32,117 bases of DNA, from NCBI GenBank assembly GCA_964413555.1, contig CAYPTK010000004.1, forward strand, positions 1-32,117, given 5' to 3'. Source of the stretch: an uncultured Bacteroidales bacterium. Its GTDB lineage: Bacteria; Bacteroidota; Bacteroidia; Bacteroidales; JBBRXJ01. The position numbers and the translations under genes were made by a program. The notes under the pieces are model-generated. The model saw only the letters and a program-made list of their open reading frames with translations, did not search any database and was not told the origin of the DNA. Positions 637-24,000 of this stretch are shown one piece after another (the first letter of the stretch is position 1; every line of letters starts with the position of its first letter).

Positions 637-669
637 TATATGGATGTAAAAAATGTTATAAATCGAGTG

Positions 670-1656
670 TTATTCTTCCATGAATAATTCTCCTTTTTGG
701 CTGGTGATAAGTGTTTTGGGTTGCTGTTTATTTAGTTTTTCGCCATTCATTATTTTTTCAAAAAGCAAAAGATATTGTTCTGTCATTTTACGGCCAGAAA
801 AAACATCGCGAATATATTCATGACATTTTTTTCGGTCGTATTGTCCAATGTATTGAATCGCGTTCACTAATTCATTTTTGCTGTTTGAGAGAAAGCCAAA
901 TTCAGAAGTTACGAGTTCTGGTAAAGATCCATATGGAGTTCCGAAGACAGGACAACCAAAATATAAACTCTCTAAAATAGCAAGGCCAAGGGGTTCATGC
1001 CATAAAACAGGGAATAATAACGCTTCGCCCTGTTGAAGGACCATGCTTTTTTTGGCACCGCCAATGAACCCGTGGTATTTAATGGATGGATTAAAATTTA
1101 ATTTTCGTCCCCCGATTACGGCAAGTTTTTTACCAGCCTTACCGGCAATTTCAATACACCCGGGGAGGTTTTTAACAGAACGGGATGCTTTGGCTAAAAA
1201 GATCAAATGTTTCCTGGGATAGTTGATCTCTACAGGGCCTAATTCTTCAAGGTCCAGGCCATTGTATACATATTGATCGGAATTATGTCGCTCCGCGTGG
1301 TTTTTTGAGACAAACACGGTGTTTAGATCAAAATGCTCCCCGGGTTTTCCATTTCCATGAACTGTTACCATGTATGGTTGTTTAATTTCAGGGTTGATTA
1401 CGGGGGAATGGAAGTGGACAAGATCAATATCCGCGGGTATTTGCCCGGCAAAAGGTTTTTTTTCATTATACGGGATTACTTGAGCAAAAGGACACGTTGA
1501 TCCTTTTTTCACCAGAAAAGAGACGGAATGACCCATATTCACCAGTTCTTTGCCCTGAATCCAAATATCCCGTTGTGTTCCGCCATAGTGCTTAACAGGT
1601 ATTTTCCCGTTTTTCTGAACAATAAGTATCTTCATTTGTTTATGTTTTCTGTTCAT
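670..1656 (-). CDS. GT-B fold glycosyltransferase (GT4/GT1-like)
   Basis: 328-aa ORF. The C-terminal segment HEPLGLAILESLYFGCPVFGTPYGSLPELV is the typical nucleotide-sugar-binding E-x7-E region of GT-B glycosyltransferases. The N-terminal MKILIVQ...GGTQR is typical of family 4. ATGA start/stop overlap with the upstream sulfotransferase at 1653..1656; alternative start (MKILIV) at 1635. Confidence 0.85.
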   Translation of the reverse strand: MNRKHKQMKILIVQKNGKIPVKHYGGTQRDIWIQGKELVNMGHSVSFLVKKGSTCPFAQVIPYNEKKPFAGQIPADIDLVHFHSPVINPEIKQPYMVTVHGNGKPGEHFDLNTVFVSKNHAERHNSDQYVYNGLDLEELGPVEINYPRKHLIFLAKASRSVKNLPGCIEIAGKAGKKLAVIGGRKLNFNPSIKYHGFIGGAKKSMVLQQGEALLFPVLWHEPLGLAILESLYFGCPVFGTPYGSLPELVTSEFGFLSNSKNELVNAIQYIGQYDRKKCHEYIRDVFSGRKMTEQYLLLFEKIMNGEKLNKQQPKTLITSQKGELFMEE

Positions 1657-2420
1657 GAATATCCCAATTCATAAAGCAATTGTTTAGCTTCTTCATTTTT
1701 CATGAATTCTTCTATTCTTTCAGTATTTTCTGGCAATTTCCATTTTCCAACCGAAGATTTAAAAAGGTCCTGAACAGACGACGACCATGCATTGCTTTTT
1801 CGGATTTTTGAATTTTGATGCCAGTTTATTAATTCTTCTGTTCGGGGTTCTCCTGTAAATGTACATATTTGATTTATTGTTTGTTGGAATTTAAATACCA
1901 GGTTTTCGTAATAAATGGTTAATACATTGGGGTGGCCTATATATTTTAATCCCATTTTAACATCATGTACCCATCTCTCGGGAGACACCCAATAATCATG
2001 ATGATCCGGGTGTTTAGAGAGGATAACATCTCTTCCGTCCCGGATAATATGTATGAATTTAACATGATTGGAATAGTATTTAAAAATCGTTTCAAGGTGT
2101 CTTACATTCCGGGGTGTTTTTTCGCACCACCTTTTGGCAGACGAGGGGATGCGGGACAAGAGGATACTCCGGTACAGGCGGTACAGGCGTATTGGCTCGG
2201 ATTCATTATTTTTGTTTTGCTTCCAATAATTGAAAACACCAAGCTCGTTAGGATAGCAAAAGATATGAGGGTGCGCGGACAAAATTGACAGGAGCAACGT
2301 GGTTCCTGATCGTGCACAACCACCTATTAATATTGGAGAAGATGAAAACGCTCTCGTTTCTTTTTTTTTGCCCAAATAGATGATTAAGGGAGAAATAATT
2401 TGTTTGTAACGAGCTACCAT
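1653..2420 (-). CDS. Sulfotransferase, TPST/RaxST-like (Sulfotransfer_3-type)
   Basis: 255-aa ORF. 5'-PSB loop GGCARSGTTLLLSILSAHPHI, 3'-PB segment IHIIRDGRDVILS, then YYENLV...SSVGKWK...LGYS. This is the same motif order I recall for tyrosylprotein sulfotransferases (GGVPRSGTTLM / VRDGRA / YYEQLV / SKW / LGY). Confidence 0.8.
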   Translation of the reverse strand: MVARYKQIISPLIIYLGKKKETRAFSSSPILIGGCARSGTTLLLSILSAHPHIFCYPNELGVFNYWKQNKNNESEPIRLYRLYRSILLSRIPSSAKRWCEKTPRNVRHLETIFKYYSNHVKFIHIIRDGRDVILSKHPDHHDYWVSPERWVHDVKMGLKYIGHPNVLTIYYENLVFKFQQTINQICTFTGEPRTEELINWHQNSKIRKSNAWSSSVQDLFKSSVGKWKLPENTERIEEFMKNEEAKQLLYELGYS

Positions 2421-2443
2421 TTATTATGTTTATGAATTAGTGA

Positions 2444-4252
2444 TCAATCAAATTGTTTGTCGTGTAAATGTTTAAATAAACCGTTTTGGTCTAATAATTC
2501 CTGGTATTTACCTCTTTCAACGATTTCCCCGTCCTTCATGACCAGGATCAGGTCTGCTTTCATGATAGTAGAAAGCCGGTGTGCAATGACAATAGAAGTC
2601 CGATGCTTCATTAGATTGAAAATAGCATTTTGAACGAGTTTTTCAGATTCACTGTCTAAAGAAGAGGTTGCTTCGTCCATGATAAGAATAGGTGGATTGT
2701 TAAGGATTGCCCGGGCGATGGTGACCCGTTGGCGTTGCCCCCCGGATAACTTAATGCCCCTGTCGCCAACATTGGTTTGGTATCCTCGTGCCATTTGAAC
2801 GATAAAATCATGTGCATTTGCTACTTTGGCCGCTTCAATAACATCAGATTCATTTACATCATTTAGTCCAAAAGCAATGTTATTGTACACTGTATCGTTA
2901 AATAATATAGCTTCCTGGCTGACAATGCCGATCATTTTTCTAATACAATGTTTTTTAAAATGTTGTAATGGAACCCCGTCAAAATAAATGGCCCCTCGTG
3001 TTACATCATAAAACCTGGGGAGCAGATCGGCAAGGGTTGACTTTCCTGCCCCTGAAGGGCCAACCAATGCAATGGTTTGGCCTTTATTAATTTCAAAATT
3101 TATATTTTTTAATACATCCGTATCCGTGTATTTAAAATACACTTGATCATATTTTATCGTGTGATGGAATTCTTTAATAGGCTTTGCATCGGGGATGTCT
3201 TTTATGGGATTTTCAATATCAAGGATTTCTTTGATCCTGTCGTATGAAGCAATGCCTTTTTGAATATCATAATACAATGTAGAAAGTCCTTTGGCAGGGT
3301 TCAGTACCTGTGAAAAGATTACCAGGTAACCTATCAATGCACCGGGTGTTAATGCTCCTGTACCTGACAATACTATTTTTCCTCCAAAATACATGATCAT
3401 TACAATCACGATTGTTCCAAGGAGTTCGCTGACAGGATGAGCTAAAATACGGCGACGCTCAATTTTTTTCATAAGCCTGGTAAACAAATGATTGTTTTTT
3501 TTAAAATGTCGAGTGGAATGTGTTTCTGCATTAAATGCTTTGATAATACGGATGCCAAACAATGTTTCTTCAATATAAGAGATGATAGTACCTAATACGC
3601 GTTGTCCTTTGAGTGATTTGCTTCTTAGTGTTTTCCCAATACGCCCGATGGTAAACCCGGCGACCGGTAACACGGCCAGGACAAACAATGTTAATCGTGT
3701 ACTCATGAAAAACAGGGAATACATGTAAACTATGATCATGATCGGGTTTTTGATCAGGGTATGGATGCTCCTGACAAGAAACATTTGAACTTGCTGAATA
3801 TCACCACTCATCCTGCTGATAATGTCCCCTTTTTTTTCTTCCGAGAAATAAGAAAGAGGAAGATAAATGATTTTGTGATACAACGTGTTTCGAATATCAC
3901 GGATGATGTTGAACTTCATGGAAGCCATTGTATATCGCGCGGTGTACATAAACCCGGATTTAAAAAGAACCATGACAACAACAACAATACTTACAAATAA
4001 AAGGGCTGCTTCTCCACCACGTTCTGTAATGATTTTGCTTAATAAATAGTAAAAATTGGTTTTTAATGCATCTACAGAGAGTTCAAAAGGAACGGGCTCG
4101 AGAATCATTTCCTGTTTTTTGAATAATATATTTAAAAAAGGAATGATCATGGTGATCGAAAACAATGAAAAAAGGGTACTGAATATATTGGATAAAATGC
4201 TCACCAATAGTTTTCCCCAGTACGGGACAATATATTTGAAAAAATCAATCAT
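2444..4252 (-). CDS. ABC exporter, fused permease/ATPase (MsbA-like)
   Basis: 602-aa ORF with an N-terminal multi-TM domain and a C-terminal NBD. Walker A GPSGAGKST, signature LSGGQRQR, Walker B ILIMDEATSSLD, H-loop IAHRLST. No N-terminal C39 peptidase domain. 23 nt upstream of the TPST-like gene and 20 nt downstream of purB. Confidence 0.9.
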   Translation of the reverse strand: MIDFFKYIVPYWGKLLVSILSNIFSTLFSLFSITMIIPFLNILFKKQEMILEPVPFELSVDALKTNFYYLLSKIITERGGEAALLFVSIVVVVMVLFKSGFMYTARYTMASMKFNIIRDIRNTLYHKIIYLPLSYFSEEKKGDIISRMSGDIQQVQMFLVRSIHTLIKNPIMIIVYMYSLFFMSTRLTLFVLAVLPVAGFTIGRIGKTLRSKSLKGQRVLGTIISYIEETLFGIRIIKAFNAETHSTRHFKKNNHLFTRLMKKIERRRILAHPVSELLGTIVIVMIMYFGGKIVLSGTGALTPGALIGYLVIFSQVLNPAKGLSTLYYDIQKGIASYDRIKEILDIENPIKDIPDAKPIKEFHHTIKYDQVYFKYTDTDVLKNINFEINKGQTIALVGPSGAGKSTLADLLPRFYDVTRGAIYFDGVPLQHFKKHCIRKMIGIVSQEAILFNDTVYNNIAFGLNDVNESDVIEAAKVANAHDFIVQMARGYQTNVGDRGIKLSGGQRQRVTIARAILNNPPILIMDEATSSLDSESEKLVQNAIFNLMKHRTSIVIAHRLSTIMKADLILVMKDGEIVERGKYQELLDQNGLFKHLHDKQFD

Positions 4253-5751: not shown

Positions 5752-6516
5752 TTAGAAGGGTAAAACCCCTACGCCTATCTTGAGCATTAGCCAATTCATG
5801 TATAATAACCGTTTAGCAGAAGCATGTCTGATTTTATCATCTTCATATGATTTAAAGCTTCCAATGGGAAGATGACTTCCAATGGAATAACGGAAAAATA
5901 CAGCATCTTTAATAATCCGTTGGTTTCCATATTCAAGCGTAAAAACAAAATCAGAATATGAATCTTCATATCTTATTTTATTGATAGATGTAGCTTCATC
6001 TTCAACATCCTCATAAATATCATTTACATTATCAATAATTGGCATATATGTTAATAGAGAAGCGCCTAATTTAAAATAAGTCCCCATTGGAGATAAATAT
6101 TTATCGAATATTTTTATACTAGGCCCTATTTCAAAAGCACTTACAGGAAAATAATAACTAGGATTAAATGATTCCCCATAATCATCTACCTTATAATATA
6201 AATAAGATTCAGAAAGGTCTACACCTGTTTTGTAGAAAACCGCATCTAACCCAATACTTGTTCTACGCGATATAGTATAAAAAATGTTGAATGAATGACG
6301 TTTATTTAAAGGCCATGATGTTTGGGTTATAGCATCATTATCATAAGAAGCTAAAGCCTGATACCCTTTGGCATTAGGATTGAATGCTGCTAGAAAAAAG
6401 CTCAGGTCATAATTTATTTCAAATCGTTTCCCTAAATAACCCGGAGGTTGTTGACTAAATATGGAAATTGGTATAACAAAGAAAAAACTTATTAAAATGA
6501 ATTGCTTTACTTTCAT
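5752..6516 (-). CDS. Hypothetical secreted protein, putative outer-membrane beta-barrel
   Basis: The ORF track starts at a GTG (6552). The ATG at 6516 gives MKVKQFILISFFFVIPISIFSQ, a clean signal peptide. The sequence shows alternating hydrophobic/aromatic-rich strands and a C-terminal ...IGVGVLPF (terminal Phe, common in OMP barrels). No recognisable family. Confidence 0.55.
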   Translation of the reverse strand: MKVKQFILISFFFVIPISIFSQQPPGYLGKRFEINYDLSFFLAAFNPNAKGYQALASYDNDAITQTSWPLNKRHSFNIFYTISRRTSIGLDAVFYKTGVDLSESYLYYKVDDYGESFNPSYYFPVSAFEIGPSIKIFDKYLSPMGTYFKLGASLLTYMPIIDNVNDIYEDVEDEATSINKIRYEDSYSDFVFTLEYGNQRIIKDAVFFRYSIGSHLPIGSFKSYEDDKIRHASAKRLLYMNWLMLKIGVGVLPF

Positions 6517-6551
6517 ATTTATGGTTTTTTTAATTTTTATATGATAATACA

Positions 6552-8516
6552 CTATCGAGTTGAAGATGTTTGATAAAAATAATCGTAAATAATGGATTTT
6601 AAATGATCATTTGCATCACTAGAACTTGAAAAGGAATTAAAATCTCTAAACAATTTACCATTATTTTCATCTTGATGAATATCATAAAGGAAATAAGCAA
6701 AATATAAATTATGCTGGGATTTAATAAAATCATCGATTAAAAAGGGGAGTGTAATCCCAAATGAAATAATAGCATAATAAACTTCCAGAGAAGACACATT
6801 ATTATCAATTTTATTATAATATGTTGTCCATAGGAAATGACTTGTATTATATGTATCTTCTAAATCAGAAATGAATGGTTTCTGGCTGGATAAGAATGTA
6901 ATATAAGGGCTACGTTGATTGTATAATTCATTATGCCATTGTTGCAAACGTGAATAATTATTATAATCGTTTACTTGTTCAGGTCTTAATGTAAGAGGAT
7001 GTATTGTTTCGATTGAAAATCCTTTAATTTTATTAGCGCAAAAATTCAATAATTCAAAAAATTCAAGACGGCGGTTTTCAGATTTATGGTATTTCAGTTT
7101 ATAATTATCATCATCCTTTATATCTAGTCGGTAATGAAAAGGATTTACAATAACTACTTTATTTATACCTAAAGCCTGTCCTTTCTTTTTGATTAATTTT
7201 TTTTCATTTTCTTTTTTCTCTTTTTCTTTTTGTAAGTTTTCACCTAAATTTTTTTTATCTTCTTCTGCTTCACTTTTTTTTCGTATTTCAACAAAGTTTT
7301 CAAACTTATTGGTAAATTCTTCATCTTTAAAAAGGCTCACGAAAGTAAATTTATGGAATGCTTTATTGGTCGTTAATTCTTCAATTTCTTTCTTTTTTGC
7401 AATTTTTTCATATTTGCTTAATGATTCTGAGGCAGTTTTTGAAGTATCAGTTGTCTCCAGCAGTTCTTTTTGTGTTTGTTTGAAATAATCGCCATCATCT
7501 ATTTTGTTATGCAATACCAATTCTTTTAAAGATGAATCTGCCAATTCTTGTAAATATTCATTTTCAGGATGTTCATTTGAAAGCTCCCAATTATATCGCA
7601 CAGCAATGCTGGCAAGTTCTACTGGTTCTAATTTATTGATAAAATAATATAATGGTTGTGATGAGCCTTCAATTTCATTATAATCTATAAATTCGAAAAG
7701 GTTCTTGTACTTTTTTTCTTCATATTTATGAGAACCATATGTATATTCATGTATGTTTTCGGCTGTATCTATGTTGTGGATAAAATTTTTATGCTTAGCC
7801 AAAGCATATAATGAGTATCCCAATGATCGTTGTAAATAATCATTATCCGGATCGTCCTGTAGTAACATATAAGCGCCATAAGCGCTTTTATAATAGTCTC
7901 TTTCAATGACATATAGGTTTATCAATTCATGTCTGGCAATTTTCCTTATGAGGTAAAAAGTTTCTTCACTAACAATAAATTCTTCACCGGATTTACCCTT
8001 TTTTTCTAATAAGCTTTCAAGGGATTCTATCCTTTTTCTAATGTTTGGATGAGTGCTTTTTGAGTCGTCATATTCTTCAACATTTATACTATTTATTTCT
8101 TCTAATTTGAGTTTATCCGGAAATTTGTAATCTTCTCTTTCCAAAAAGGATAAGTTAAATTCAATTTGATCAAACGGGAGGTAAGAATATTTTAAAATAT
8201 TCATTGCTCCAATAGATTCGAAGCTGGAATAGTTGGTTTTTAATATATCTTCAAGTGCTTTTTCATCGGCTTTTTTTTCTTGGATTTTGGAAAAACTAAA
8301 ATACGCTTTTTCCCTATCTGATGTGTTGATGTCTTCATAATCATCCTCACTTTCTATTATATCTTGTTTTTCAAGATAGGCATCAAGTAAGTGGTCATTT
8401 TTATAATGATTGATTTCATGAGCTAAGATATATGCCAATTGAGCTTCATTTTCAAGTTGAGCAATTAATCCAATATTGACAAAGATTTTGCCTCCGGGGT
8501 GAATAAATGTATTCAC
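6552..8516 (-). CDS. M48-family zinc metallopeptidase with long C-terminal extension (largest intact ORF of an interrupted gene)
   Basis: 654-aa ORF beginning at a GTG. NTFIHPGGKIFVNIGLIAQLENEAQLAYILAHEINHYKNDH matches the M48 pattern (NAF..PGG.I.V..GLL......ELA.VLAHE..H) including HExxH. As tracked it has no signal peptide; see the pseudogene entry. Confidence 0.8.
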   Translation of the reverse strand: MNTFIHPGGKIFVNIGLIAQLENEAQLAYILAHEINHYKNDHLLDAYLEKQDIIESEDDYEDINTSDREKAYFSFSKIQEKKADEKALEDILKTNYSSFESIGAMNILKYSYLPFDQIEFNLSFLEREDYKFPDKLKLEEINSINVEEYDDSKSTHPNIRKRIESLESLLEKKGKSGEEFIVSEETFYLIRKIARHELINLYVIERDYYKSAYGAYMLLQDDPDNDYLQRSLGYSLYALAKHKNFIHNIDTAENIHEYTYGSHKYEEKKYKNLFEFIDYNEIEGSSQPLYYFINKLEPVELASIAVRYNWELSNEHPENEYLQELADSSLKELVLHNKIDDGDYFKQTQKELLETTDTSKTASESLSKYEKIAKKKEIEELTTNKAFHKFTFVSLFKDEEFTNKFENFVEIRKKSEAEEDKKNLGENLQKEKEKKENEKKLIKKKGQALGINKVVIVNPFHYRLDIKDDDNYKLKYHKSENRRLEFFELLNFCANKIKGFSIETIHPLTLRPEQVNDYNNYSRLQQWHNELYNQRSPYITFLSSQKPFISDLEDTYNTSHFLWTTYYNKIDNNVSSLEVYYAIISFGITLPFLIDDFIKSQHNLYFAYFLYDIHQDENNGKLFRDFNSFSSSSDANDHLKSIIYDYFYQTSSTR

Positions 8517-8879
8517 TGAAGGGTCTTTTGAAGTATAAATAGATATTTTTTTTCTTAAAGAAGGGTCATTTTTGTAAATTTCGTCTGCTACTGCCCGTAT
8601 ATAATTGGTTACCTGATCGCCAAATACTACGTTACCGCCACAGAAAATCCGGTTTAAAAAATAGCTGCTTTTGTTATAGAATTCTTTTTCGTATTCTGCA
8701 TCCCTTCCACGTTAAAATTTGGGGTTGTACTTATTGACTTTTTTTTCGGCAGAAGTGTAAAATTCTTGGGGTATATTCCCTTTTGAAGCTAAAGGGGTAT
8801 AATTATTAAAATTTATTTCTTGTGATATAACAACAGCACAATAGATATGAACAATAGCTAATAATTTTATTTTTTTCAT
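6552..8879 (-). pseudogene. Full-length M48 peptidase reading frame (775 sense codons) interrupted by a single in-frame TAA at 8714..8712
   Basis: My translation upstream of the tracked ORF: ATG 8879..8877 gives MKKIKLLAIVHIYCAVVISQEINFNNYTPLASKGNIPQEFYTSAEKKVNKYNPKF, then TAA. It continues in the same frame as RGRDAEYEKEFYNKSSYFLNRIFCGGNVVFGDQVTNYIRAVADEIYKNDPSLRKKISIYTSKDPSVNTFIHPGG... Offsets 8879-8714=165 and 8714-8516=198 are both multiples of 3. 121 otherwise stop-free codons in AT-rich DNA argue for one gene. Confidence 0.7.
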
Positions 8880-9275: not shown

Positions 9276-9659
9276 TTAGTTTTCGAGATATTTGAAGGGA
9301 AATCCTATCATTTCGGAAAATTCTTCACCAGCTTCTTTCATATCACAATCTTCTTTTTCATAATACCAATTGATGGTAACAGGGAGCCCTTTTTCACTAT
9401 ATTCTACAATAAGATATAAAATATCTGCTAAAAATTTAGCTGAAGAGGAATTAAAATATCCCATTTTAAATGATACAGTGAATGATTCATCTGACTGGTG
9501 TAACGAAACCAATATATCTTCAAGTTTTTCAATGATAGGCTGATAAAATGCCCGGACATCTTCAGGCCTGGAATTGCCTTCAATGAACATTTCTTTGTTT
9601 TCAGGGATAATTAAGACTTTAGGTGTTTTTTCTCCCGGGGAAATTTCAATTCGCTCCAT
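9276..9659 (-). CDS. SiaC-like regulatory phosphoprotein (DUF1987 family)
   Basis: 127-aa ORF. EKTPKV...IEGNSRPEDVRAFYQPII...MGYFNSSSAKFLADIL...INWYYEKEDCDMKEAGEEF follows the DUF1987/SiaC pattern as I remember it (TP.V, G.S.PE, YFN[TS]SS.K, WYYE..D.DM.E.GE). It lies 16 nt downstream of the SiaB-like ORF. Confidence 0.8.
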   Translation of the reverse strand: MERIEISPGEKTPKVLIIPENKEMFIEGNSRPEDVRAFYQPIIEKLEDILVSLHQSDESFTVSFKMGYFNSSSAKFLADILYLIVEYSEKGLPVTINWYYEKEDCDMKEAGEEFSEMIGFPFKYLEN

Positions 9660-9675
9660 ATTTATTTTTTAATGG

Positions 9676-10206
9676 TCAAACACATATTATTATTTTCATT
9701 GTAAAATAATAGCAATCTTTGCAAACATCTTCAAAGTGATAATGAATCTGATTTTCAGACATCCGTCCAATGGTGATAAGGCCGAGGTTTGCACCTCCTT
9801 TAGCTGAGAGGTTTTCTTCCCGGAGTCTTATCTGGTAAAGTTTTTTTATGGCAACTTTATCAGAATGATTTATGTAATCAAGAATATTTTCAAGCTTTTT
9901 TTTGTCTTCATTGCTTACAATGTTTCCACAACTAATTAATACTTCATTAGTATTGTTTTTTATTTCCATTTTAATAAATGAAGGATACTCATCCTCACCG
10001 GTTTGATGTGAAAAATTTTCAAAAGTATGTTTGTGAAGATTTGTCAGGCATTCTTCAATTACAGTATAAATACGTTTAGATATTTTGTAAGAGAATGGTT
10101 CTTTTTGTAAAATGTTTGAACATTCTTTAAGTATACTATCGTTTTTTTTATGATCAAATAGCCCCTTATAAAATATGCCTTTGTTTATCACTGTATCTTG
10201 CATCAA
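9676..10206 (-). CDS. SiaB-like Ser/Thr protein kinase (GHKL/anti-sigma-factor-kinase-like, DUF6272-type)
   Basis: 176-aa ORF directly upstream of the DUF1987 gene, with the same order and sizes as siaB-siaC. N-box-like IEECLTNLHKH and glycine-rich lid AKGGANLGLITIGR resemble SpoIIAB/RsbW-type kinases. Assignment is by motif memory and synteny only. Confidence 0.6.
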   Translation of the reverse strand: MMQDTVINKGIFYKGLFDHKKNDSILKECSNILQKEPFSYKISKRIYTVIEECLTNLHKHTFENFSHQTGEDEYPSFIKMEIKNNTNEVLISCGNIVSNEDKKKLENILDYINHSDKVAIKKLYQIRLREENLSAKGGANLGLITIGRMSENQIHYHFEDVCKDCYYFTMKIIICV

Positions 10207-10279
10207 TTGAACATTTATTAATGTTGGAATAAAAGTAATTGAAATTTTTTATAAATTAAAATAATATTTTTTAAAAAAC

Positions 10280-10287
10280 CAAAATTA
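10280..10287 (-). promoter_or_regulatory. Candidate -7 box (TAATTTTG on minus strand) for the SiaB-like/SiaC-like operon
   Basis: Plus-strand CAAAATTA equals minus-strand TAATTTTG, about 73 nt upstream of start 10206. Confidence 0.3.
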
Positions 10288-10342
10288 TTTTTATTAAATC
10301 TTTTAAAAATCAATAAAATAAGGTAAAAAAATGAAAAATCTG

Positions 10343-10350
10343 TAACTTTG
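10343..10350 (+). promoter_or_regulatory. Candidate -7 box (TAACTTTG) for the HprK-like/sulfotransferase operon
   Basis: Exact TAnnTTTG match 68 nt upstream of ATG 10419, in the 212-bp AT-rich divergent spacer. Confidence 0.3.
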
Positions 10351-10418
10351 TATCAGGGAAAAAATTACTGAAAAATAAAACACGTACAATTATACCGAAA
10401 ATTCAGTGTTTAATAATT

Positions 10419-11342
10419 ATGATAAATTACAAAAAATATTATTACAAAGCGTTTGGCATCAATATAGAGTCGGAGTTGCCGTTTAAAGAACTGGAAGAAG
10501 GGCAAGCCAATCCTCAAGTAAAAATTTGTTTTGCTCGTGTTCCCGGAACTCTTGAAAGCCCGCTGAGTAAAGGAGTACGATTCGAAGCAAAAAAAGGCCT
10601 TTTTCTTTTAAAAATAGATGATGTAGCAAACTATTTAGTGAAAGACGGGCAGGAGATACTCATTGAAAAAAATAATCCCTCTGTTGCTGAAAATGAAATA
10701 CGACTTTTTTTATTAGGGCCTGTAATGGGAGCCTTGTTATTTCAGCGGGGATTACTCCCCATACATGGAAGCGCCATCAAAAAATCCGGCAAAGCAATTA
10801 TTTTTTCAGGCATACCAGGTGCAGGAAAATCAACTTTGGCAACAGCCTATCTGAATAGAGGGGATAGTATCATTTCAGATGATATTAGTGTAATTAATAT
10901 AAATGCCAATAATGTTCCAATGATTTATCCCGGATTCCCACAAATGAAGTTATGGGCAGATACCTTACAGCAGTTTGGAAGCGAACAACAAACAAGACGT
11001 GTCCTTCGCGAGGGAATTCAGAAGTTTGGAATACCTGTTAAAAATGGATATTTTAACCAGCCTTTACCAGTGCAAAAAATTTATATCCTGGGCACGTGTA
11101 ATCAACCTGATTTTATATTCAATACATTGAAAGGGATAGACAAATTCAATGCATTGAAAAATAATACTTACAGGTGGCAGTTTATAAAAGGTTTAGGAAA
11201 AGCAGAAGAACATTTTTCTCTCGTGAGCAGACTGGCAGAACATGTTGATGTTGCCAGGATTACACGGCCCATTGATTCTTTCAGGGTAAAAGAGTTAATG
11301 GAATTGATAAATAATGACCTTAAACATTTACAGAAGGCATGA
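10419..11342 (+). CDS. HprK-like P-loop serine kinase (HPr kinase C-terminal-domain superfamily; lasso-peptide-kinase-like)
   Basis: 307-aa ORF. LLGPVMGALLFQRGLLPIHGSAIKKSGKAIIFSGIPGAGKSTLATAY (P-loop) is followed by SIISDDISVI (the ADD-type catalytic Asp segment of HprK/P). The N-terminal YKAFGINIESELPFKEL matches what I recall of HprK-related kinases in RiPP and exosortase-associated clusters. Confidence 0.7.
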   Translation: MINYKKYYYKAFGINIESELPFKELEEGQANPQVKICFARVPGTLESPLSKGVRFEAKKGLFLLKIDDVANYLVKDGQEILIEKNNPSVAENEIRLFLLGPVMGALLFQRGLLPIHGSAIKKSGKAIIFSGIPGAGKSTLATAYLNRGDSIISDDISVININANNVPMIYPGFPQMKLWADTLQQFGSEQQTRRVLREGIQKFGIPVKNGYFNQPLPVQKIYILGTCNQPDFIFNTLKGIDKFNALKNNTYRWQFIKGLGKAEEHFSLVSRLAEHVDVARITRPIDSFRVKELMELINNDLKHLQKA

Positions 11343-12229
11343 ACGGACCGGGAAAGATTTTTTGGTTGGCGTCATATCCAAAATCAGGGAATACATGGTT
11401 CAGGGTGTTTTTATCAAACCTGTTTTATCAGGATAACCAACCTGCTGATATTAATAATCTTACAATTAGTGTAATGGCGAGTAGCAGGAACGTATTTGAT
11501 GAGGTAACTGGTGTCCCTTCTTCAGAATTAAGCTTCAACGAAATCCTTAATTTACGTCCTGCCGTGTATAAACATCTTTCTTCGCGGGCGAAAGAACCTG
11601 TTTTCCAAAAAATACACGATGCTTATATCACGACTCCCCGGGAAGGCCCGTTAATCCCAAAAGAAGCAACCAAAGGAGTAATTTATTTTATCCGGAATCC
11701 CCTGGATATCGCGGTTTCTTTTGCTTATCATTCAGTGTGCTCATATGATAAGATGATACAGATAATGAATGACCCTGGATATTCATTTTGTGGGAATCCC
11801 CGGAAAATGCATAACCAACTTGAGCAAAAACTTCTTACATGGAGCGGGCATGTGAAAAGCTGGACAGAACAATCCAGCCTTCCTGTGCATATTATAAAAT
11901 ATGAAGATATGATCACCCGGCCATTTGAAACATTTAAAAAAGCCATACAAAAATTGAATTTGAACAAAACAGGCGAAGATATTTCACGTGCTATACAGTA
12001 TAGTAATATTAAGGAGCTTCAAAAGCAGGAAAGCGAAAAAGGGTTTTCGGAGAAATCACCCAAGTCCGGATCTTTTTTCAGAAAAGGTAAGACTGGATCA
12101 TGGAAAGAAGAATTGAGCCAAAGTCAGGTCAACCAAATCATTCGCGATCATCACGAGGTGATGCAACGATTCGGGTATCTGAATTTTAAGGGGGCTTCTA
12201 ATAATTCCTTTCTTTCAAAAAACAAATAG
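11339..12229 (+). CDS. PAPS-dependent sulfotransferase, cytosolic SULT type (Sulfotransfer_1)
   Basis: 296-aa ORF. 5'-PSB SYPKSGNTWFRVFL, 3'-PB YFIRNPLDIAVS, and C-terminal FFRKGKTGSWKEEL (the RKG..G.WK motif of SULT enzymes). ATGA overlap with the HprK-like gene at 11339..11342. Confidence 0.85.
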   Translation: MNGPGKIFWLASYPKSGNTWFRVFLSNLFYQDNQPADINNLTISVMASSRNVFDEVTGVPSSELSFNEILNLRPAVYKHLSSRAKEPVFQKIHDAYITTPREGPLIPKEATKGVIYFIRNPLDIAVSFAYHSVCSYDKMIQIMNDPGYSFCGNPRKMHNQLEQKLLTWSGHVKSWTEQSSLPVHIIKYEDMITRPFETFKKAIQKLNLNKTGEDISRAIQYSNIKELQKQESEKGFSEKSPKSGSFFRKGKTGSWKEELSQSQVNQIIRDHHEVMQRFGYLNFKGASNNSFLSKNK

Positions 12230-12236
12230 AATAAAT
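12185..12236. repeat. Direct repeat copy 1 (52 bp, exact)
   Basis: tttaagggggcttctaataattcctttctttcaaaaaacaaatagaataaat. It covers the last 14 sense codons and stop of the SULT-type sulfotransferase plus 7 nt. Identical base-for-base to 32066-32117; bases 12184 and 32065 differ. Confidence 0.9.
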
Positions 12237-12277
12237 AAGATGCAAGGCATAAATTTTTCATAATAGCCAAAGCTATA

Positions 12278-13102
12278 TTGAAAAATTTCAACAGAATTTT
12301 GTCCTGGCCAATGCTTTTATTGGTTTTGGTATTTTTAGTAGTTGCAAGTAGTTGCAAAAAAGAAGAAGAAGATAAACCGGCCCCGGATTTACCACCCGAA
12401 AGTGCTTTTGTCATGGATTTTTCAGATTTTGATGACGCGAGTGACACGGCAAAAAAATCCAATGGGACGTATCAATATTGGGGAACGGCATTTATTGACG
12501 TGGCAATATGGAACACGATTATTACCTTATCTGCCATTGTTCCGGTAGCTGCATATCAGCATGCCATTACCCAGGATGCAGAATACCTTGGTGACAATAA
12601 ATGGGAATGGAAATTTAATTTCAATGCCGGTGGAAGCAGGCATTCTGCAGTTTTAACCGGGGAACTCAGCAATGAACAGGTAAACTGGGAAATGAAAATT
12701 GATGATTTTACCTGGTATACAGGAACATCACGATATGACAGAACCTCAGGAAGTTGGATTTTATACAAAAGTCCAAGCAATGCATACCAGTTATTGGAAA
12801 TTACATGGCACAGGAACAGTGACGGGACTTCTGATATACGTTACGAAAACATTGTACCTGCAGGATATCCCCAAAATTCTGAAAACGGGGGATATATAGA
12901 ATATGGAATTGTAAATGACACGATTTTTGACGCGTATTACGAAATATATAATAAAGGAGCTGATAATCTGACAAATATTCAATGGAACAGGGAAACACGT
13001 GACGGGCGTATCAGTGATCCTGATGCATTTAATGACAGTGGAGAATGGCATTGCTGGGATTCGAATCTGCAAGACATGGATTCATGTTCTGTTTCTAAAT
13101 AG
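12278..13102 (+). CDS. Hypothetical lipoprotein
   Basis: 274-aa ORF. The TTG start at 12278 gives MKNFNRILSWPMLLLVLVFLVVASSC-KKEEEDKP: a charged n-region, an h-region and a lipobox Cys followed by an acidic/Pro linker. The alternative ATG at 12311 lacks an n-region. No recognisable family. Confidence 0.6.
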   Translation: MKNFNRILSWPMLLLVLVFLVVASSCKKEEEDKPAPDLPPESAFVMDFSDFDDASDTAKKSNGTYQYWGTAFIDVAIWNTIITLSAIVPVAAYQHAITQDAEYLGDNKWEWKFNFNAGGSRHSAVLTGELSNEQVNWEMKIDDFTWYTGTSRYDRTSGSWILYKSPSNAYQLLEITWHRNSDGTSDIRYENIVPAGYPQNSENGGYIEYGIVNDTIFDAYYEIYNKGADNLTNIQWNRETRDGRISDPDAFNDSGEWHCWDSNLQDMDSCSVSK

Positions 13103-13151
13103 TGTTTGTCCATAATGTCCGCTAACACCGGTACAGTCATTCTTCCTTACG

Positions 13152-13177
13152 GGGCATGCTTCGTTACGCATGCCCCA
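13152..13177. other. Perfect 9-bp GC-rich hairpin (ggggcatgc / 8-nt loop / gcatgcccc) inside a locally GC-richer noncoding stretch
   Basis: Read directly: 13152-13160 pairs with 13169-13177. It is not followed by a T-run on either strand, so it is not a canonical intrinsic terminator. Confidence 0.5.
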
Positions 13178-13284
13178 AAATTGCTCATTTACACCAGTAA
13201 ACTGAGCATTTTAGGGCTTCGTGATCCTCGTTATCGAGCTTGATGATCCAAAAACGATTAGTTGCCTGTCCATGGAAAAGAAAT

Positions 13285-13329
13285 AAAAAACCGGGACGTG
13301 TTTAAATAAAAAAACGTCCCGGTTTTTTT
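13285..13329 (+). terminator. Intrinsic (potentially bidirectional) terminator
   Basis: aaaaaa-CCGGGACG-(16-nt loop)-CGTCCCGG-ttttttt. The 8-bp GC-rich stem is 13291-13298 / 13315-13322, followed by a T7 run and preceded by an A6 run. It lies between the lipoprotein gene and typA. Confidence 0.7.
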
Positions 13330-13365
13330 ATGTTGTCAGCCCGGTATTATTATATTTCTTTTAAC

Positions 13366-13373
13366 TATTTTTG
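13366..13373 (+). promoter_or_regulatory. Candidate Bacteroidota -7 promoter box (TATTTTTG) upstream of typA
   Basis: Exact match to TAnnTTTG, 30 nt upstream of the typA ATG and just downstream of the terminator. No convincing -33 TTTG at canonical spacing. Confidence 0.35.
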
Positions 13374-13403
13374 CAGCTTTGAACAATAGCAGGAAATATA
13401 TTT

Positions 13404-18000: not shown

Positions 18001-21000
18001 CTATTCCAATATAATTTTTCGCAGCACGTATCCTTTATCACTTGAAATAACAAGATAATAAAGCCCGCGTGATAAATGCCTCACGTCCAATTGTTCGGAA
18101 ATGTATCGTTTGTTCCTGTATTTAGATACATGAACAAGTTGGTTTCGCGTGTTATACATCTTGAGCACGAAACTCGTGTTGCTCTTCGCGTTCAGTTCAA
18201 TATTGAAAAATTCATGAGCCGGAACAGGGAAGATACCCAGGTCAAAATAATCGTTTGCTAATTCTTCTATGCCCACGGGAGCAACAAATATAGAGCTTTT
18301 TGCTTTGCATTGATTCATTGCTGTTACTGTTACACTATATAAGCCTTGTTGTGTAACCTCGAGGGTGGAAGCGGTAGAAGCATCATCCCAAAGATATGCC
18401 TGGTAAGTATTGGTTAAACTTAGTGTATGAGGGAATGAAGTTTCAAGTGTATCACTTGCTGTTTCCCATTGTATTTCAGGAGCGCCCAGGAGATGTGCAG
18501 AACCGTCAAGAGTATCATTCCGGGTGAATAAATCGCCTGAAAGATTCGTGATAACCTTTATATCTAAATTACCCGGGCCTTCGCGTTTGATCACGGAGTC
18601 AAATGTATAAACAAATGTTTCGTCAGGATAAATATTGGTTCCTCCCGGTATATTGTTTACCCTGAATTCTTCAGTTACTTTGTTACTTTGGTCATACATG
18701 TAACTAATTGTAACCAGGTTCGAGGTCAGTATATTGGTCCCTTTGTTTTTTAACGTCACCTCAAGCGGATACATATCTGTTATTCCACAAACAGTATCAT
18801 GTGCTAATGCAACCGGGGAGATATCATCATAATAAATTTCAATAAATATGGAATCATTGCTTGAACATCCTTTTGAATTGGTTACCGTGACAAAATAATG
18901 ATCCATTGCATTGGCAGTATATGTCGAATCCGTTGACCCGTCACCCCATGAATAGGAAGCATAACTTCCAGAAATGGTTATTTCATAAGGAAGGTCTGTT
19001 GTTATCGTATCACCATTCCAGCCAATATCAGGGATGCCATGTAAATATACATTTTTCGTGAGCGTATCATTATAGTAAATACTATCATTATCAGTTGATG
19101 ATATGATTTTGTACATGTACGATCCATTTTGAGAAAGTGCTATGGTTGAGTCAAATGCATAAGAGAATGTATCACCCGGGGCAACAGTATCGGTTATATC
19201 TGTAATCCTGAATGTTTCAGTTAAAATATCTCCACCATTAATGATATAACTCAACCGGATGTCATTCGTGTTTAATGTTTGGGTTCCCGTGTTGGTAAAT
19301 AACACGTTCATGTTATGTGATTGATGGATATTACAAGCGGTGTCCGGGAGTGTTATTGATGTGATTTCAACATCTGTAAATGATTCAATGATATGAATCG
19401 AATCATTGGCGCTGCAATTTGCTGTATTATAAACTGTTACATGATATGTTCCGCTTGCATTTACCTCAAAAGAAGGATTGGTTGATCCATCCTCCCAATG
19501 GTAAGCATCATACGCTTGTGCCAGGCCTAAATTATGAGGAAATGCAACATGTGCCGTATCTCGCGGGTAATTCCAAACCACTTCCGGCATTCCTTCTGAA
19601 TAAATGGTTTTACGGGCCGTGTCGTTCCCGGTTATAATATCATTGGATATTTTTGCTATGATTTCATAATCAAATGATCCCACGTTCTTATTCACGTATG
19701 TTGAATCAAATTGATAGACAAATGTATTTCCCGGGAAAATAGTATCGGAAATATCTGTTACCGGCAATGTTTCCTGAACCAGGTTGCCCTGATTAATGGA
19801 GTAGCTCACGGAGATATTTCCTGAAGTTAAAGGCCTGGTCCCAGTGTTTTTCATAAGCGACTCCACCGGGTCGTTCGGCGTAAGGCCGCAGGATGTGTCC
19901 GGCATTTGGATACTCAGGACTGAAATATCAGTATACACGAGTTTTATTTTAACCTGATCTGATGCCTGGCATCCGTTTGTATCGGTTACTGTTACAGAAT
20001 ACATATCATCACCTGTAAACGTTGAGGAATTCAAAACAAATGTTCGTGTTGTATCATTATTATGCCATTGATACCCGGGAAATTCTGATCCTGCATCAAG
20101 AGTATATTCTGCAATATCATAGTAGGTGGTATCGTCTTCTCCATAGTCTAAGTCAACCGTGGGTAATATATAAGTAGTTAATTGAGTGGTAAGGGTATCA
20201 TTGCTTTTCACGGAATCCCTGTCCATTGCAGTATACGATTTAAACGCGAACGTGCTACCGGCTGCAATGTTCAACGAGTCATTGAATGTAAATGTTAATG
20301 AATCGTTTGGATAGAAGTTACTTGCAAGCACGATTGTATCTTTCACAACAGGGCCTGAATTAACCTGGTATATGACCGGAATTGGTGTGACGGGGCGAAT
20401 GGTATCAGAACCCACGTTTGTTATTTCAACCTTTATTGGTTCACTGGTCATATCACCACATGTATTTCCCGGGGTAATTATTTCAGTGATACTAACATCG
20501 GGTATGACCAATGTAACCAACGATGAATCTACAGCAGGGCAATTATGGACATCGGCTACAGTAACTGTATAGTAATCCGGGTAACCAACCGTGTCTATTA
20601 ATAATGTAGAATCTGTTGATGCATCTTCCCATGTAAAATATTTATATGTCGTATCGCCCAGGCGTGCATTCAGGCGGAATGAGAATCCCACGTGTACAGT
20701 ATCCCGGGGGGTAATAGAAAATGTTGGATAACCCCATACATGCACATTCATATTAACAGTATCATTTGCCGTGGTATCATCTTCTTTGTATGTAGTCAGG
20801 ATGGTATCAATATAAGCCACGAAATTATAAGATTTTTCGACAAGCATATTTTCGGCCGAGTCGAAATAATGGATATATGTACTGTCAGGATACACGGTGT
20901 CTGCAATCATGAATGTATCGGAAACCGGCAAACCACCTTCAAATTGATATCCGGCAACAACATAATAGTTGGCACGGATGGTGTCAGTACCATAATTAGT

Positions 21001-24000
21001 AATTTCAATGGCAACGGGAACGCTGTCCCCGAGTTCACAGTCACTTTGAGGATTCGCTATATTGGAAACACCGATATCTGCTATAAGCCTTACGATTTCG
21101 ACAGTATCTTTAGCGATACACCCGGTTGATTTATCTGTTACAATTACATTGTATATTCCTTCTTCAGGCACATGATAAACAGAATCTTTGGAGATGGTAT
21201 CATTCGAGCCGGCTTTTTGCCATGCATACCTGTTATCAGGGCCAGGGTAAGCATCTAAAATAATTGTATCAGGATAACAAGTGTATTTTGTACCACCAAA
21301 TTCAACATAAGGTTTTCTTACCACGACTATTTTATTCACGGTATCATTGATAATATTCAAATCTGTTTTCGTAGTGTCTCCCTCCGATGCAGCCAAATTG
21401 AAAACAGGGTATGCAATCAATTCATAAATACCGGATTGATACATATCAAACGTGTTTTTTAATGTATAATGAAGCGTGTCTCCCTGCGCGAGGTCTTTGG
21501 ATAAGACAAACGTGTCAATTACTGTAGGCTCTCCATTGAAATCAACACCAATATGCAACGTGTCACCTGCATGCAACGTGTCAAAATAATAATTTGTAAT
21601 GGCTGTTTTAATTTTTTCAGCAGGAGATAATTCACATGCACTTTCAGGGTAAGTAATAGAATCAACACCAAAGGCAGGCACTTCATAGAGCATAAAGTCA
21701 TCAAAACCTATTCCTTCATTCACATTATTGGAGTTACTGGCGAATCGTATTCTGAATTGAACTTTGGATTGCCCGGTAATTTCGGGGGGAAGGATTTGTT
21801 TGATTGTTTTCCAATTGGAAAACGTTGTATCCCACCCTTTTATGCCGAGGCTTTCAATAGTGTCATTGTTATACCAGGGCCAAGTGGCCGGGCCGTCATC
21901 TTGTTTTTCTATTACTGACCAGGTATTACCCCCGTCAATAGAATAGTCCATTACAGCCCCGTCTTTATATTGCTCGAGATCTAATATATAGTCAAATTGA
22001 ATAATAGCATATCGTTGATCACTGAAATTAAAGCAGGGGCTTGTCAAAAATGAAGAATCATTGTTGTTGTGATTATAGTCAATATCCGTGGCCCATGCTT
22101 TGGTTCCGGAAGAAGCCTCGAAAATATGAAAGCCGGAAGGTTCACCGTACTCCCATGAATAATTTCTACCGGATGGAATCCAAAAACCGTCGGACGATTC
22201 AAAATCATCGGCATAGGGAAGATGATAAGTCGGGAAGACCAATAAATTTCTGAAAAGAGTATCATTTTCAGTATATTGATCTGTAGACATTAAAGTTGTT
22301 GCAAATAGTTGTGTTGAATCATAATTATAAGGATCTGAAAGGTCTACTGTTTCTGAAAAGACAAATAGTGTATCCTGTCCCGGCATCAGCGTTCCATAAA
22401 AAGTATCTATAGCTGTTCGTGTAGTGCTTCCTGTAAATGAATACATCAAAGGGATGGGGTTTTTGGTGGGTTTCCCGGCATAATTACTTATAATCACTTT
22501 TACCGTATCATTTGCTGTATGATTACAACCATGAGTCGGGGTGATCCATTTTTTAATGCCTACATCCCGTTTAATTTCTGTACCTCCTAATGCAAGGTTG
22601 TCTATGTTCCAACTACTTAGTTGTTTGGGTTGGAAATTATCTGTTGGCCCCACGCCAAATTTAATCCGGCATGAATCTTTTTTTGTAAATTGAGGGATGG
22701 AATATTGTTTGATGTCCCAATGTTTATCATGAACCACGTTTTTATCATTATTCCACAATTTTTGCCATGTATTTCCCCCATCATTGCTAACCAAAAGGTC
22801 TACTTTATCTCCATTGCCTTCATCGTACCAATCGGTATTCAATTTTCTATAAAAATGGATACCCACGTCTTTATAAAATTTGCAATTAAACACGGGACTC
22901 ACCGCCCAGTAGGTGGTATCCATATTTGCCTGGTAATTTCCGTCTCCTGTTAAGTCATAGCCCAAAATATTTGTCCCAATAATGCTATTTTCCGGGTCGG
23001 GATTGGCATACACTGTATCTCCAAGCCCAAGGGGAGCAGTTATTTCAAATTCTCCATTCATTGTCCACGGGATGCCCTGATCAAAATCATCATAAAAAAT
23101 CCCGGAGGTTATGGTTATTTCTCCAGCCGGTGAAATGTCATTTGACGGGGAATGATTTACAATGGGTACGCTATTCGTATCTCCACCGAAAACATAGTAA
23201 ATGCTGTCACCCTTCCTGTAAATATGCTCGTTAAACGTAATTGAATTGGTATCAATGATGGTTTTGATGCTTTTTTCACATAAAGCAGCATCGAGGATAC
23301 TTCCTTCAGCAGCCGCGGTGTCGCAATGATAAGTTAACCATAAATAAGTATACCCGGAAGGCAATGATAAGTTTAGATTTTTGAACATTGCTTTATTACC
23401 TGTAAACCCGTTTAACACGCCTATTTCAGTTTCAGGGCTGAATGTTGGATTTTTTGTAGTAAATAATTTAATGCCATCCGGGGAAACATGCTCATTGGTA
23501 TCATTTAAACTTTGAAAAGCAATTGAATCCAGTATTAAATCGCCACTGTTTCCATACGCGCCTAATTTTATTTTAACGAGTGGTATTTGTTTATAACCCG
23601 ATGGTATACTGCTCACAGGATATTGAGAAACATCCACGCTTTGAAGATGGATTGGGATGATGCCTGTTTCAATAACCGAAATACTATCTATGCAAGTGCC
23701 GTATCCCCAGCCTGTTATTCCTTCAAACCCAATATACGAGGTACTTGACAGTATGCTGTCAGGTAAAAAAATCTCTCGTTTTGTCCATTCATTTACAGCC
23801 TGATCATAATGTTTATTAAGATATACCCAATTACTATCCAAATGTTGTTTAAAATAAACTTTTAATTCATCCTGAAACCCTCCACTCGGCACCTGGGCAT
23901 GCCAAAACGTGAGCATGGGTTTTATAGCAAATTCAAGATCAATGGGTGTTGTAACCAATTTGGTGATTCGCGGTATTGAACTATTATAGTACAAAACAGC

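Follow-up and report, generated by a model that had tools for sequence, protein, structure and literature searches.

Organization of the locus

The DNA considered here is a 32,117-bp stretch from an uncultured Bacteroidales bacterium (assembly GCA_964413555.1, contig CAYPTK010000004.1), referred to in its entirety as the window, and the subject is a kinase-sulfotransferase gene pair together with the genes that adjoin it. The pair lies on the plus strand and begins with a 307-aa HprK-like kinase (10419-11342), a P-loop protein of the PEPCK fold from a family that tailors lasso peptides and other peptides that are made on the ribosome and modified after translation (RiPPs). It is followed by a 296-aa sulfotransferase (11339-12229; Sulfotransfer_1, PF00685) of the type that uses 3'-phosphoadenosine-5'-phosphosulfate (PAPS). 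The two genes share a 4-nt ATGA overlap, and the sulfotransferase is translationally coupled to the kinase. A gene for a 274-aa lipoprotein of an uncharacterised Bacteroidota family (12278-13102, plus strand) begins 48 nt past the sulfotransferase gene. On the minus strand, a gene for a SiaB-family Ser/Thr protein kinase of 175-176 aa (9676-10206; DUF6272, NF038262, PF19788) is separated by 16 nt from one for a 127-aa regulatory phosphoprotein of the SiaC family (9276-9659; DUF1987, PF09345). Between the two divergent groups is an AT-rich intergenic spacer of 212 bp (10207-10418, assigned to no strand) that is presumed to hold both promoters. An intrinsic-terminator-like hairpin, with an A-run and a T-run on either side, is found on the plus strand between the lipoprotein gene and typA (13284-13329).

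An initial annotation made from the letters alone had described these genes as one self-contained block. The gene coordinates, junction lengths, and divergent layout that it listed are all borne out. The reading favoured here, with a probability of roughly 0.55, makes the region a mosaic in which three units are independent of one another: a tailoring pair, a SiaBC switch, and a lipoprotein.

Family assignments of the four enzymes and regulators

Profile searches with the kinase gave matches below cutoff to Hpr_kinase_C (4e-6), TIGR04352 HprK_rel_A (3e-10), HprK_rel_B, and ScmC, and the curated cutoffs for HprK/P itself are not reached (PF07475, 26.8 vs 33.3 bits; TIGR00679, 25.8 vs 240 bits). 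At least 975 homologues were detected, and His116-Gly117, the Walker A motif G131-x4-GKS138, and Asp154-Asp155 occupy invariant columns in the homologue alignment. A profile of the kinase matches the P-loop region of HprK/P at 1.2e-5 with the His-Gly, Walker A, and Asp-Asp motifs in register, and the AlphaFold2 model (mean predicted local distance difference test score, pLDDT, 92) matches the PEPCK and HprK/P folds at E values of 2e-9 to 1e-6. The window kinase therefore shares with HprK/P, the enzyme of carbon catabolite control, a P-loop/PEPCK-like fold and the His-Gly, GxxGxGKS, and Asp-Asp motifs. That said, only about 50 residues align by sequence, the N-terminal domain of the window kinase differs, and there is no HPr context. 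Full-length identity of 38-46% is found to kinases embedded in complete lasso clusters.

The sulfotransferase matches PF00685 at 4.6e-25 (88.9 bits against a gathering cutoff of 22), and sequence reading combined with an alignment to Teg12 locates a PKSGNTW 5'-phosphosulfate-binding (5'-PSB) motif and an RKGxxGxW 3'-phosphate-binding (3'-PB) motif. Among solved structures it comes closest to Teg12, Teg14, and StaL (4e-13), sulfotransferases for glycopeptide antibiotics; these are PAPS-dependent enzymes that act on peptide natural products and have the PSB motifs in common with the window protein. The relationship is nevertheless distant, with an E value of about 4e-13 over partial coverage, and the substrate here would be a ribosomal peptide at best.

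On the other side of the spacer, SiaC matches PF09345 at 9.2e-33 (112.9 bits, cutoff 24.5) and the SiaC structures 6kko and 7e6g at 2.6e-11, with YFNSSSAK aligned to YLNTSSIK. This places Ser71 at the N-T-S-S phospho-acceptor region of Pseudomonas aeruginosa SiaC. SiaB exceeds the cutoff of NF038262 (94.6 bits, cutoff 85), matches DUF6272/PF19788 at 9e-26, and matches the P. aeruginosa SiaB chain 6kko_A at 2.8e-7; the ATG at 10203 is the likelier start, and the protein is called as 175 aa on the Logan contig. Both proteins fall below the NCBIfam equivalog cutoffs (SiaC, 69.7 vs 150 bits for NF038265; SiaB, 38.6 vs 225 bits for NF038264) and so are to be regarded as family members rather than orthologues. 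All of the family calls in the initial annotation agree with these profile searches, and neither the 176-aa nor the 307-aa protein is reassigned.

In P. aeruginosa, SiaB phosphorylates SiaC, and unphosphorylated SiaC binds an effector, SiaD (PMC8457831; bioRxiv 10.1101/674879). The SiaABCD system resembles the window in its adjacent genes for a SiaB-family kinase and SiaC and in the phosphorylatable residue at the equivalent site. It differs in having the SiaA PP2C phosphatase and the SiaD diguanylate cyclase, neither of which the window holds; among the window open reading frames (ORFs) scanned, no SpoIIE/PP2C (SiaA-type) or GGDEF (SiaD-type) domain was found.

A tailoring pair of paeninodin-type lasso clusters

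A scan with the kinase over 185,579 species-representative genomes yielded 80 loci (L002-L081) spanning Bacteroidota, Chloroflexota, Desulfobacterota, Bacillota, Verrucomicrobiota, and other phyla. In 68 of the 77 loci that are informative, the sulfotransferase gene lies directly 3' of the kinase gene, the median gap being about 14 nt. When the neighbouring ORFs were clustered de novo and the clusters then confirmed by Pfam, the recurrent companions proved to be a PqqD-like RiPP recognition element (RRE; 58 loci), a Transglut_core3 peptidase corresponding to lasso B2 (49 loci), an NTP_transf_5 nucleotidyltransferase (44 loci), and an Asn_synthase/GATase cyclase (44 loci). In 18 Bacteroidales loci (L014, L018-L020, L023, L027-L035, L039, L041-L043) a short precursor ORF follows B2, about +2.5 to +3.8 kb from the kinase start. 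The 18 precursors all have a leader with W-x-x-P-x-L, a junction of the form ...T-E|G-G..., and Ser at the C terminus; the leader reads L-x-W-E-x-P-K-L-x-x-L-D-K-x-x-T-E in 18/18, and every core begins with G-G/N-G and ends in Ser. This terminal Ser is the predicted substrate site of the kinase.

Such a set of genes has been described before. In paeninodin-type clusters the linear precursor has its C-terminal Ser phosphorylated by a homologue of HPr kinase (PMC8498205); kinases of this kind are PadeK, ThcoK, and PsmK of the paeninodin and pseudomycoidin systems (Zhu et al. 2016, Zyubko et al. 2019, as reviewed in PMC8498205). In pseudomycoidin a nucleotidyltransferase glycosylates the phosphate, and a putative sulfotransferase gene has been noted, uncharacterised, in paeninodin-type clusters (PMC8498205). 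The WxxPxL leader is nearly invariant in paeninodin-type lasso peptides (PMC13381572). Since the neighbour set, the leader, and the terminal Ser all match, the clusters around the kinase-sulfotransferase pair are paeninodin-type lasso-peptide clusters. The pair, which had been presented initially as an unexplained combination, is in fact a known tailoring pair (PMC8498205).

Extra locus look-ups show the ancestral Bacteroidales position of these genes: a TMEM260-like gene and a polysaccharide deacetylase gene, then NTP_transf_5 and cyclase genes reading leftward, followed by kinase, sulfotransferase, PqqD, and B2 reading rightward. In kinase family and in the pairing of kinase with sulfotransferase, the window agrees with the paeninodin and pseudomycoidin clusters, but it holds the two tailoring genes alone: over 10 kb upstream and 20 kb downstream there is no RRE, peptidase, cyclase, NTP transferase, or precursor. 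The sole exporter near the pair is an MsbA-like ATP-binding cassette (ABC) gene 6 kb off, with no clear link to it. This ABC protein (2444-4252) is 48% identical to the one inside the L050 lasso cluster and both score plainly as MsbA-like, and purB, orf266, an M48 peptidase gene, and SiaBC intervene between it and the pair.

A further point of comparison is the LPP family of linear phosphorylated RiPPs in Bacillota, which comprises an HprK-like kinase (LppK), an RRE protein (LppB), a SpI-like peptidase, an NTP transferase, together with an MsbA-like exporter (PMC13381572). These systems establish that HprK-like RiPP kinases operate outside cyclase-containing clusters (PMC13381572), and they parallel the cyclase-less Bacteroidales loci L006, L009, and L012. 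The likeness has limits: the LPP core set as reported in PMC13381572 does not include a sulfotransferase, and the window, from another phylum, is without a SpI-type peptidase or RRE.

Loss of core genes and selection on the pair

The three loci closest to the window, L002-L004, have kinases 79-85% identical to the window kinase, and remnants of the core genes were sought in all four. A tblastn search of the window and L002-L004 with 44 Asn-synthase-like cyclase sequences produced no credible match, the top one (E 0.01) lying inside typA. The same four loci gave no tblastn match below E 0.1 to the PqqD-like RRE or B2 and no remnant of NTP_transf_5. A hidden Markov model (HMM) built from the 18 precursors and run against six-frame translations (--max, E <= 10) had no match in them, nor was any conserved small ORF or precursor found in the region between the sulfotransferase gene and typA or in their other intergenic regions.

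The kinase tree puts these losses in context, in that the window clade is nested in a Bacteroidales subclade without a cyclase within 10 kb. This subclade shows a reduction series, which look-ups of additional loci bore out. Seven retain kinase, sulfotransferase, PqqD, B2, and NTP_transf_5 (L006, L009, L012, L013, L015, L026, L037); L010 and L021 retain kinase, sulfotransferase, and NTP_transf_5; L005, L007, L008, and L051 have the pair alone; and L016 and L040 have the kinase alone. In L014, L031, and L034 the precursor, PqqD, and B2 are retained and no cyclase is found within 10 kb, while no recognisable precursor was found in the cyclase-less loci L006, L009, L012, and L015. The seven loci of the first group and these three may be either split clusters or, by analogy with LPP, clusters for linear, non-lasso phosphorylated peptides. 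Orphan pairs, for which no core gene is found within 10 kb, are frequent and make up large clades in Bacteroidales.

When the window and L002-L004 are compared, with dS of 0.4-1.0, the kinase has a ratio of nonsynonymous to synonymous substitution rates (dN/dS) of 0.12-0.19 and the sulfotransferase one of 0.12-0.16. These values are similar to those of SiaC (0.07-0.22), SiaB (0.09-0.17), and the M48 peptidase. By this measure the pair is under purifying selection and is not decaying. Because split clusters such as L014, L031, and L034 exist, action on an unlinked precursor would be the simplest inference.

In the sister clade (L005, L007, L010, L016, L040, L051, and L170), a gene for a LiaF-TM protein is always found downstream of the orphan pair or lone kinase. 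Flanks of sufficient length show that it is succeeded by genes for a histidine kinase of the LytS type (PF06580) and a response regulator of the LytTR type. The lone kinases of L016 and L040 likewise precede this LiaF-TM/LytS/LytTR module. The upstream flanks of the same clade differ, with frdCAB, TMEM260 and polysaccharide deacetylase genes, or other genes.

Association of SiaBC with the pair

The leading alternative to a mosaic is that the four genes on either side of the spacer form one unit, with the SiaBC switch wired to the orphan pair. It could take either of two forms. Either the kinase or the sulfotransferase might be bound and controlled by unphosphorylated SiaC, as SiaD is in Pseudomonas. 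Alternatively, SiaC itself might be phosphorylated by the HprK-like kinase, a Ser-specific enzyme, and the sulfotransferase might act on that target or on one downstream of it. Such a unit would be expected to keep its genes together, so much depends on how far their adjacency extends.

The adjacency is kept in L002-L004 and beyond. An early conclusion that it was limited to close relatives was revised when the contexts of two kinase homologues outside the species-representative set, P0005 (L167) and P0006 (L168 and L169), were found to retain it, at kinase identities of 63% and 50%, respectively. The L167 order is ABC and purB genes, then a leftward SiaC gene (6008-6400) divergent from the kinase-sulfotransferase side (6513-8330 across it), and then a uracil-DNA glycosylase gene; the spacer is 112 bp. 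Here the ABC-purB synteny of the window is still recognizable, with purB and ABC products 70-72% identical to those of the window. There is no SiaB gene anywhere in the 15-kb L167 locus, and orf266 and the M48 gene are also missing between purB and SiaC. In L168 and L169, by comparison, both flanks are different, with TMEM260 on the outer side of leftward SiaC and SiaB genes that diverge from the pair. A neighbor-joining tree of concatenated kinase and sulfotransferase sequences groups the window clade with L167 and L168 in 198 of 200 bootstraps, with orphan pairs that have no SiaBC (L170, L005, L010, L051, L007, L008) as the sister group. The SiaC tree is compatible with this topology and weakly resolved (71/100, 28/100). 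The junction therefore arose once and persisted across divergence at the family level, even as the outer flanks were exchanged. This history is compatible with a functional neighbourhood and also with the plain inheritance of one junction out of three, the other two having broken.

Several observations favour a four-gene unit: the survival of the junction in three deep lineages of one clade whose flanks differ on both sides; the L167 SiaC gene, which sits 112 bp from the kinase gene without SiaB; and the window itself, where no other effector or phosphatase adjoins SiaBC. Elsewhere SiaBC is found beside varied genes, as would be expected of a portable regulatory cassette. There is also a second, separate Bacteroidales clade (L055, L056, L060) in which SiaB-SiaC is located upstream of a complete lasso cluster, at a distance of 3.7-9 kb from the kinase; the gene that comes after SiaB-SiaC encodes, in L055 and L060, an ABC fusion protein of about 1020 aa (TerB-ABC type). 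A rough estimate of the independent origins of SiaC within 10 kb of the kinase family, 2 observed against about 0.2-0.4 expected, is no more than suggestive.

Against this stand the single origin of the junction and the small share of the family that has it. The linked clade accounts for 6 of the 120 top kinase clusters in a database of 5.8 billion proteins, and SiaBC does not adjoin the pair in about 70 other kinase loci or in the much larger sister clades of orphan pairs. The SiaC side was surveyed by scanning metagenome contigs with a SiaC alignment, and the 80 most similar loci, 670 kb in all, have no kinase or sulfotransferase homologue. In them SiaC is usually accompanied by a SpoIIE/PP2C phosphatase that carries REC or PAS/GAF domains, or else by a TerB-ABC fusion. 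An ABC fusion of the type seen in L055 and L060 accompanies SiaC in 13 of these 80 unrelated loci (TerB was detected in one representative), and the closest SiaC outside the linked clade, that of L082, adjoins genes for a short-chain dehydrogenase/reductase and a glyoxalase. Nor can the window spacer be aligned with the spacers of L167 (112 bp) or L168 (151 bp), among which no shared operator was found. Finally, the known kinases of this family target peptide precursors rather than folded proteins (PMC8498205, PMC13381572). Ser in place of Thr at the SiaC phosphosite was tried as a marker of the linked clade and rejected, as 34 of 75 unlinked homologues also have Ser there; it is not diagnostic of a four-gene unit. 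On balance such a unit is rather unlikely. The neighbourhood comparison invited by the initial annotation thus has a split outcome, with adjacency in related genomes and independent occurrence of SiaBC and the pair outside one small clade.

The lipoprotein, intergenic sequences, and flanking genes

The lipoprotein family has members of about 270 aa with a long helix followed by a beta-meander, two conserved C-terminal Cys residues, and an invariant lipobox Cys26. No Pfam or NCBIfam family matched it, and its AlphaFold2 model (pLDDT 89) has no significant fold match in the PDB. The 53 homologues detected (30-92% identity) adjoin genes for EF-G, a RadA-like protein, a Hanks-type kinase, and other unrelated functions. 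The window and L002 have the gene, but L003 retains just a C-terminal remnant of 43 aa and L004 lacks it. Given these losses and the unrelated contexts of its homologues, the lipoprotein is a dispensable neighbour and not a component of any system at the locus. This deletion, together with the lack of a SiaA-type phosphatase or output protein in the window, tells against the self-contained block that was proposed at the outset.

The spacer is conserved within the close clade (window and L002-L004), and GC content is 0.23 in the 500-bp interval around it (10001-10500). It does carry TAnnTTTG boxes facing both ways, one per strand (10280-10287, minus; 10343-10350, plus), as was pointed out initially. 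They are weak evidence for promoters, however, because the window has no excess of the octamer (37 copies found, 45 expected) and L002-L004 conserve neither box. In L004 an insertion of about 230 bp (about 9780-10000) follows the spacer-homologous sequence directly 5' of the kinase start, and the kinase there consequently has a different start codon and N-terminus.

The terminator, also an initial proposal, is upheld: the hairpin at 13284-13329 has a GC stem of 9-10 bp and a T7 tail, with a folding energy of -24.8 kcal/mol and a z-score of -4.1. A consensus terminator scan missed it because its loop exceeds 8 nt, and a near-identical copy is found in L003. The region between the lipoprotein gene and typA (13103-13403, 300 bp) is relatively GC-rich, largely kept in L002 and L003, and replaced in L004. 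A second, perfect 9-bp hairpin (GGGGCATGC/GCATGCCCC, 13151-13176) lies 5' of the terminator. Rfam at gathering thresholds gave no match in the window, this intergenic region included.

Upstream, the M48 peptidase gene (6552-8879, minus strand) is interrupted, as originally noted, by a single in-frame TAA at 8712-8714, where L002 has Ser; it is not frameshifted, and the remainder is colinear with the 793-aa L002 orthologue at 87% identity. The TAA could be the mark of a recent pseudogene, a sequencing error, or a site of read-through. At the left end of the window (1-4252, minus strand) are four genes in a row: a sulfotransferase-like ORF that continues past the window start and has an HIEKTAGTT motif, then genes for a GT4 glycosyltransferase (670-1656) and a Sulfotransfer_3 protein (1653-2420), and finally the MsbA-like ABC exporter already mentioned (2444-4252). 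The glycosyltransferase, Sulfotransfer_3, and ABC genes are all conserved in L004. Toward the right end, two giant secreted proteins are encoded, one of 2073 aa bearing a Por_Secre_tail (18001-24222, minus strand) and one of 2157 aa bearing about ten PKD domains plus CHU_C (24411-30884, plus strand); a PorP/SprF gene follows them (30954-31934, plus strand). The type IX secretion cargo marks the organism as a member of the Bacteroidota. PADLOC models gave no match to the five proteins of the locus at E <= 0.001, and a defence role is therefore unsupported.

Interpretation and remaining alternatives

Read as a mosaic, the locus would have the following history and function. The HprK-like kinase and the PAPS sulfotransferase would be the tailoring pair of a paeninodin-type lasso cluster, and the kinase, if it behaves as the published paeninodin-type kinases do, would phosphorylate the C-terminal Ser of a linear precursor. 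Within the Bacteroidales subclade of the window, the cyclase would have been lost from the locus first and the other core genes later, leaving the coupled pair. Because purifying selection persists, the pair most likely still acts on a Ser-bearing peptide; this substrate would be encoded elsewhere in the genome and would be phosphorylated and probably O-sulfated. By analogy with P. aeruginosa SiaABCD, SiaB would phosphorylate SiaC, here at Ser71, and the unphosphorylated form would bind an effector. SiaBC would have become a neighbour of the pair a single time, in the common ancestor of one small clade, and have remained there, and the lipoprotein would be an unrelated neighbour.

A number of points weigh against a mosaic. 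No substrate for action in trans was identified within the visible 32 kb of genome, and according to a 2021 review, sulfation by the sulfotransferase family of lasso clusters has no experimental demonstration in any cluster (PMC8498205). The junction between SiaC and the pair survives to about 50% kinase identity with both outer flanks changed (purB is at 70% in L167), a pattern that a functional neighbourhood would also give. L167 retains SiaC beside the kinase though SiaB is gone, and the presence of SiaB-SiaC upstream of complete lasso clusters in L055, L056, and L060 points in the same direction.

It is doubtful, though conceivable, that the pair has been repurposed independently of SiaBC and now acts on a substrate that is not a RiPP, for instance an envelope protein, secreted peptide, or small molecule, after loss of the core genes. 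In that event it would be a stand-alone modification module under whichever regulator adjoins it. Orphan pairs are common enough, in large Bacteroidales clades, to make this attractive; both genes are under purifying selection, and the LiaF-TM/LytS-type/LytTR module of the sister clade is constant while the upstream flanks vary. On the other hand, there is no candidate substrate in view, residues that are catalytic or invariant in the family have not changed, and the split clusters L014, L031, and L034 make action in trans on a RiPP the simpler assumption. That the pair is instead a non-functional cluster remnant, its adjacency to SiaBC meaningless, is very improbable and largely refuted by the selection analysis: the core genes and precursor are all missing from the locus and the nonsense codon in the neighbouring M48 gene indicates some gene decay in the region, but the ORFs are intact in five genomes as well as in L167 and L168, dN/dS is 0.12-0.19 at dS up to 1.0, and the active-site motifs are invariant.

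The mosaic reading also bears on the original idea of a five-gene system for hydroxyl modification, which is partly supported: the parts and their adjacency stand, and their unity does not. The more specific suggestion that phosphorylation and sulfation compete on a switch protein is without direct support.

Implications

If the mosaic reading is true, the locus is mostly ordinary, a known lasso tailoring pair and a known type of partner switch having been re-identified. Every part belongs to a known kind, and prior work covers the pairing of kinase and sulfotransferase (PMC8498205) and the existence of cyclase-independent HprK-like RiPP kinases in Bacillota (PMC13381572). The literature searched yielded no description of abundant, fully orphan, selected kinase-sulfotransferase pairs in Bacteroidales, nor of the clade-specific signalling neighbourhoods of such pairs (SiaBC; LiaF-TM/LytS-type/LytTR).

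Orphan pairs that are under selection and widespread in Bacteroidales would imply either that they act on unlinked precursors or that they have a second job. Genome mining for RiPPs would miss or mis-score such loci, and they bear on the role of the uncharacterised sulfotransferase. The orphan Bacteroidales pairs may be signalling-controlled modification modules, with SiaBC as the regulator here and the LiaF-TM/LytS-type/LytTR module in the sister clade. A stronger version, that a SiaC-type switch captured a RiPP pair that had outlived its lasso cluster, is unlikely; SiaC would then gate the enzymes, or the kinase would have taken SiaC as a substrate, and the latter would fit L167, where SiaB is lost and SiaC lies close to the kinase gene. 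The retention of SiaC beside the pair in one clade is a case in which a SiaC switch with an effector other than a cyclase could be tested cheaply.

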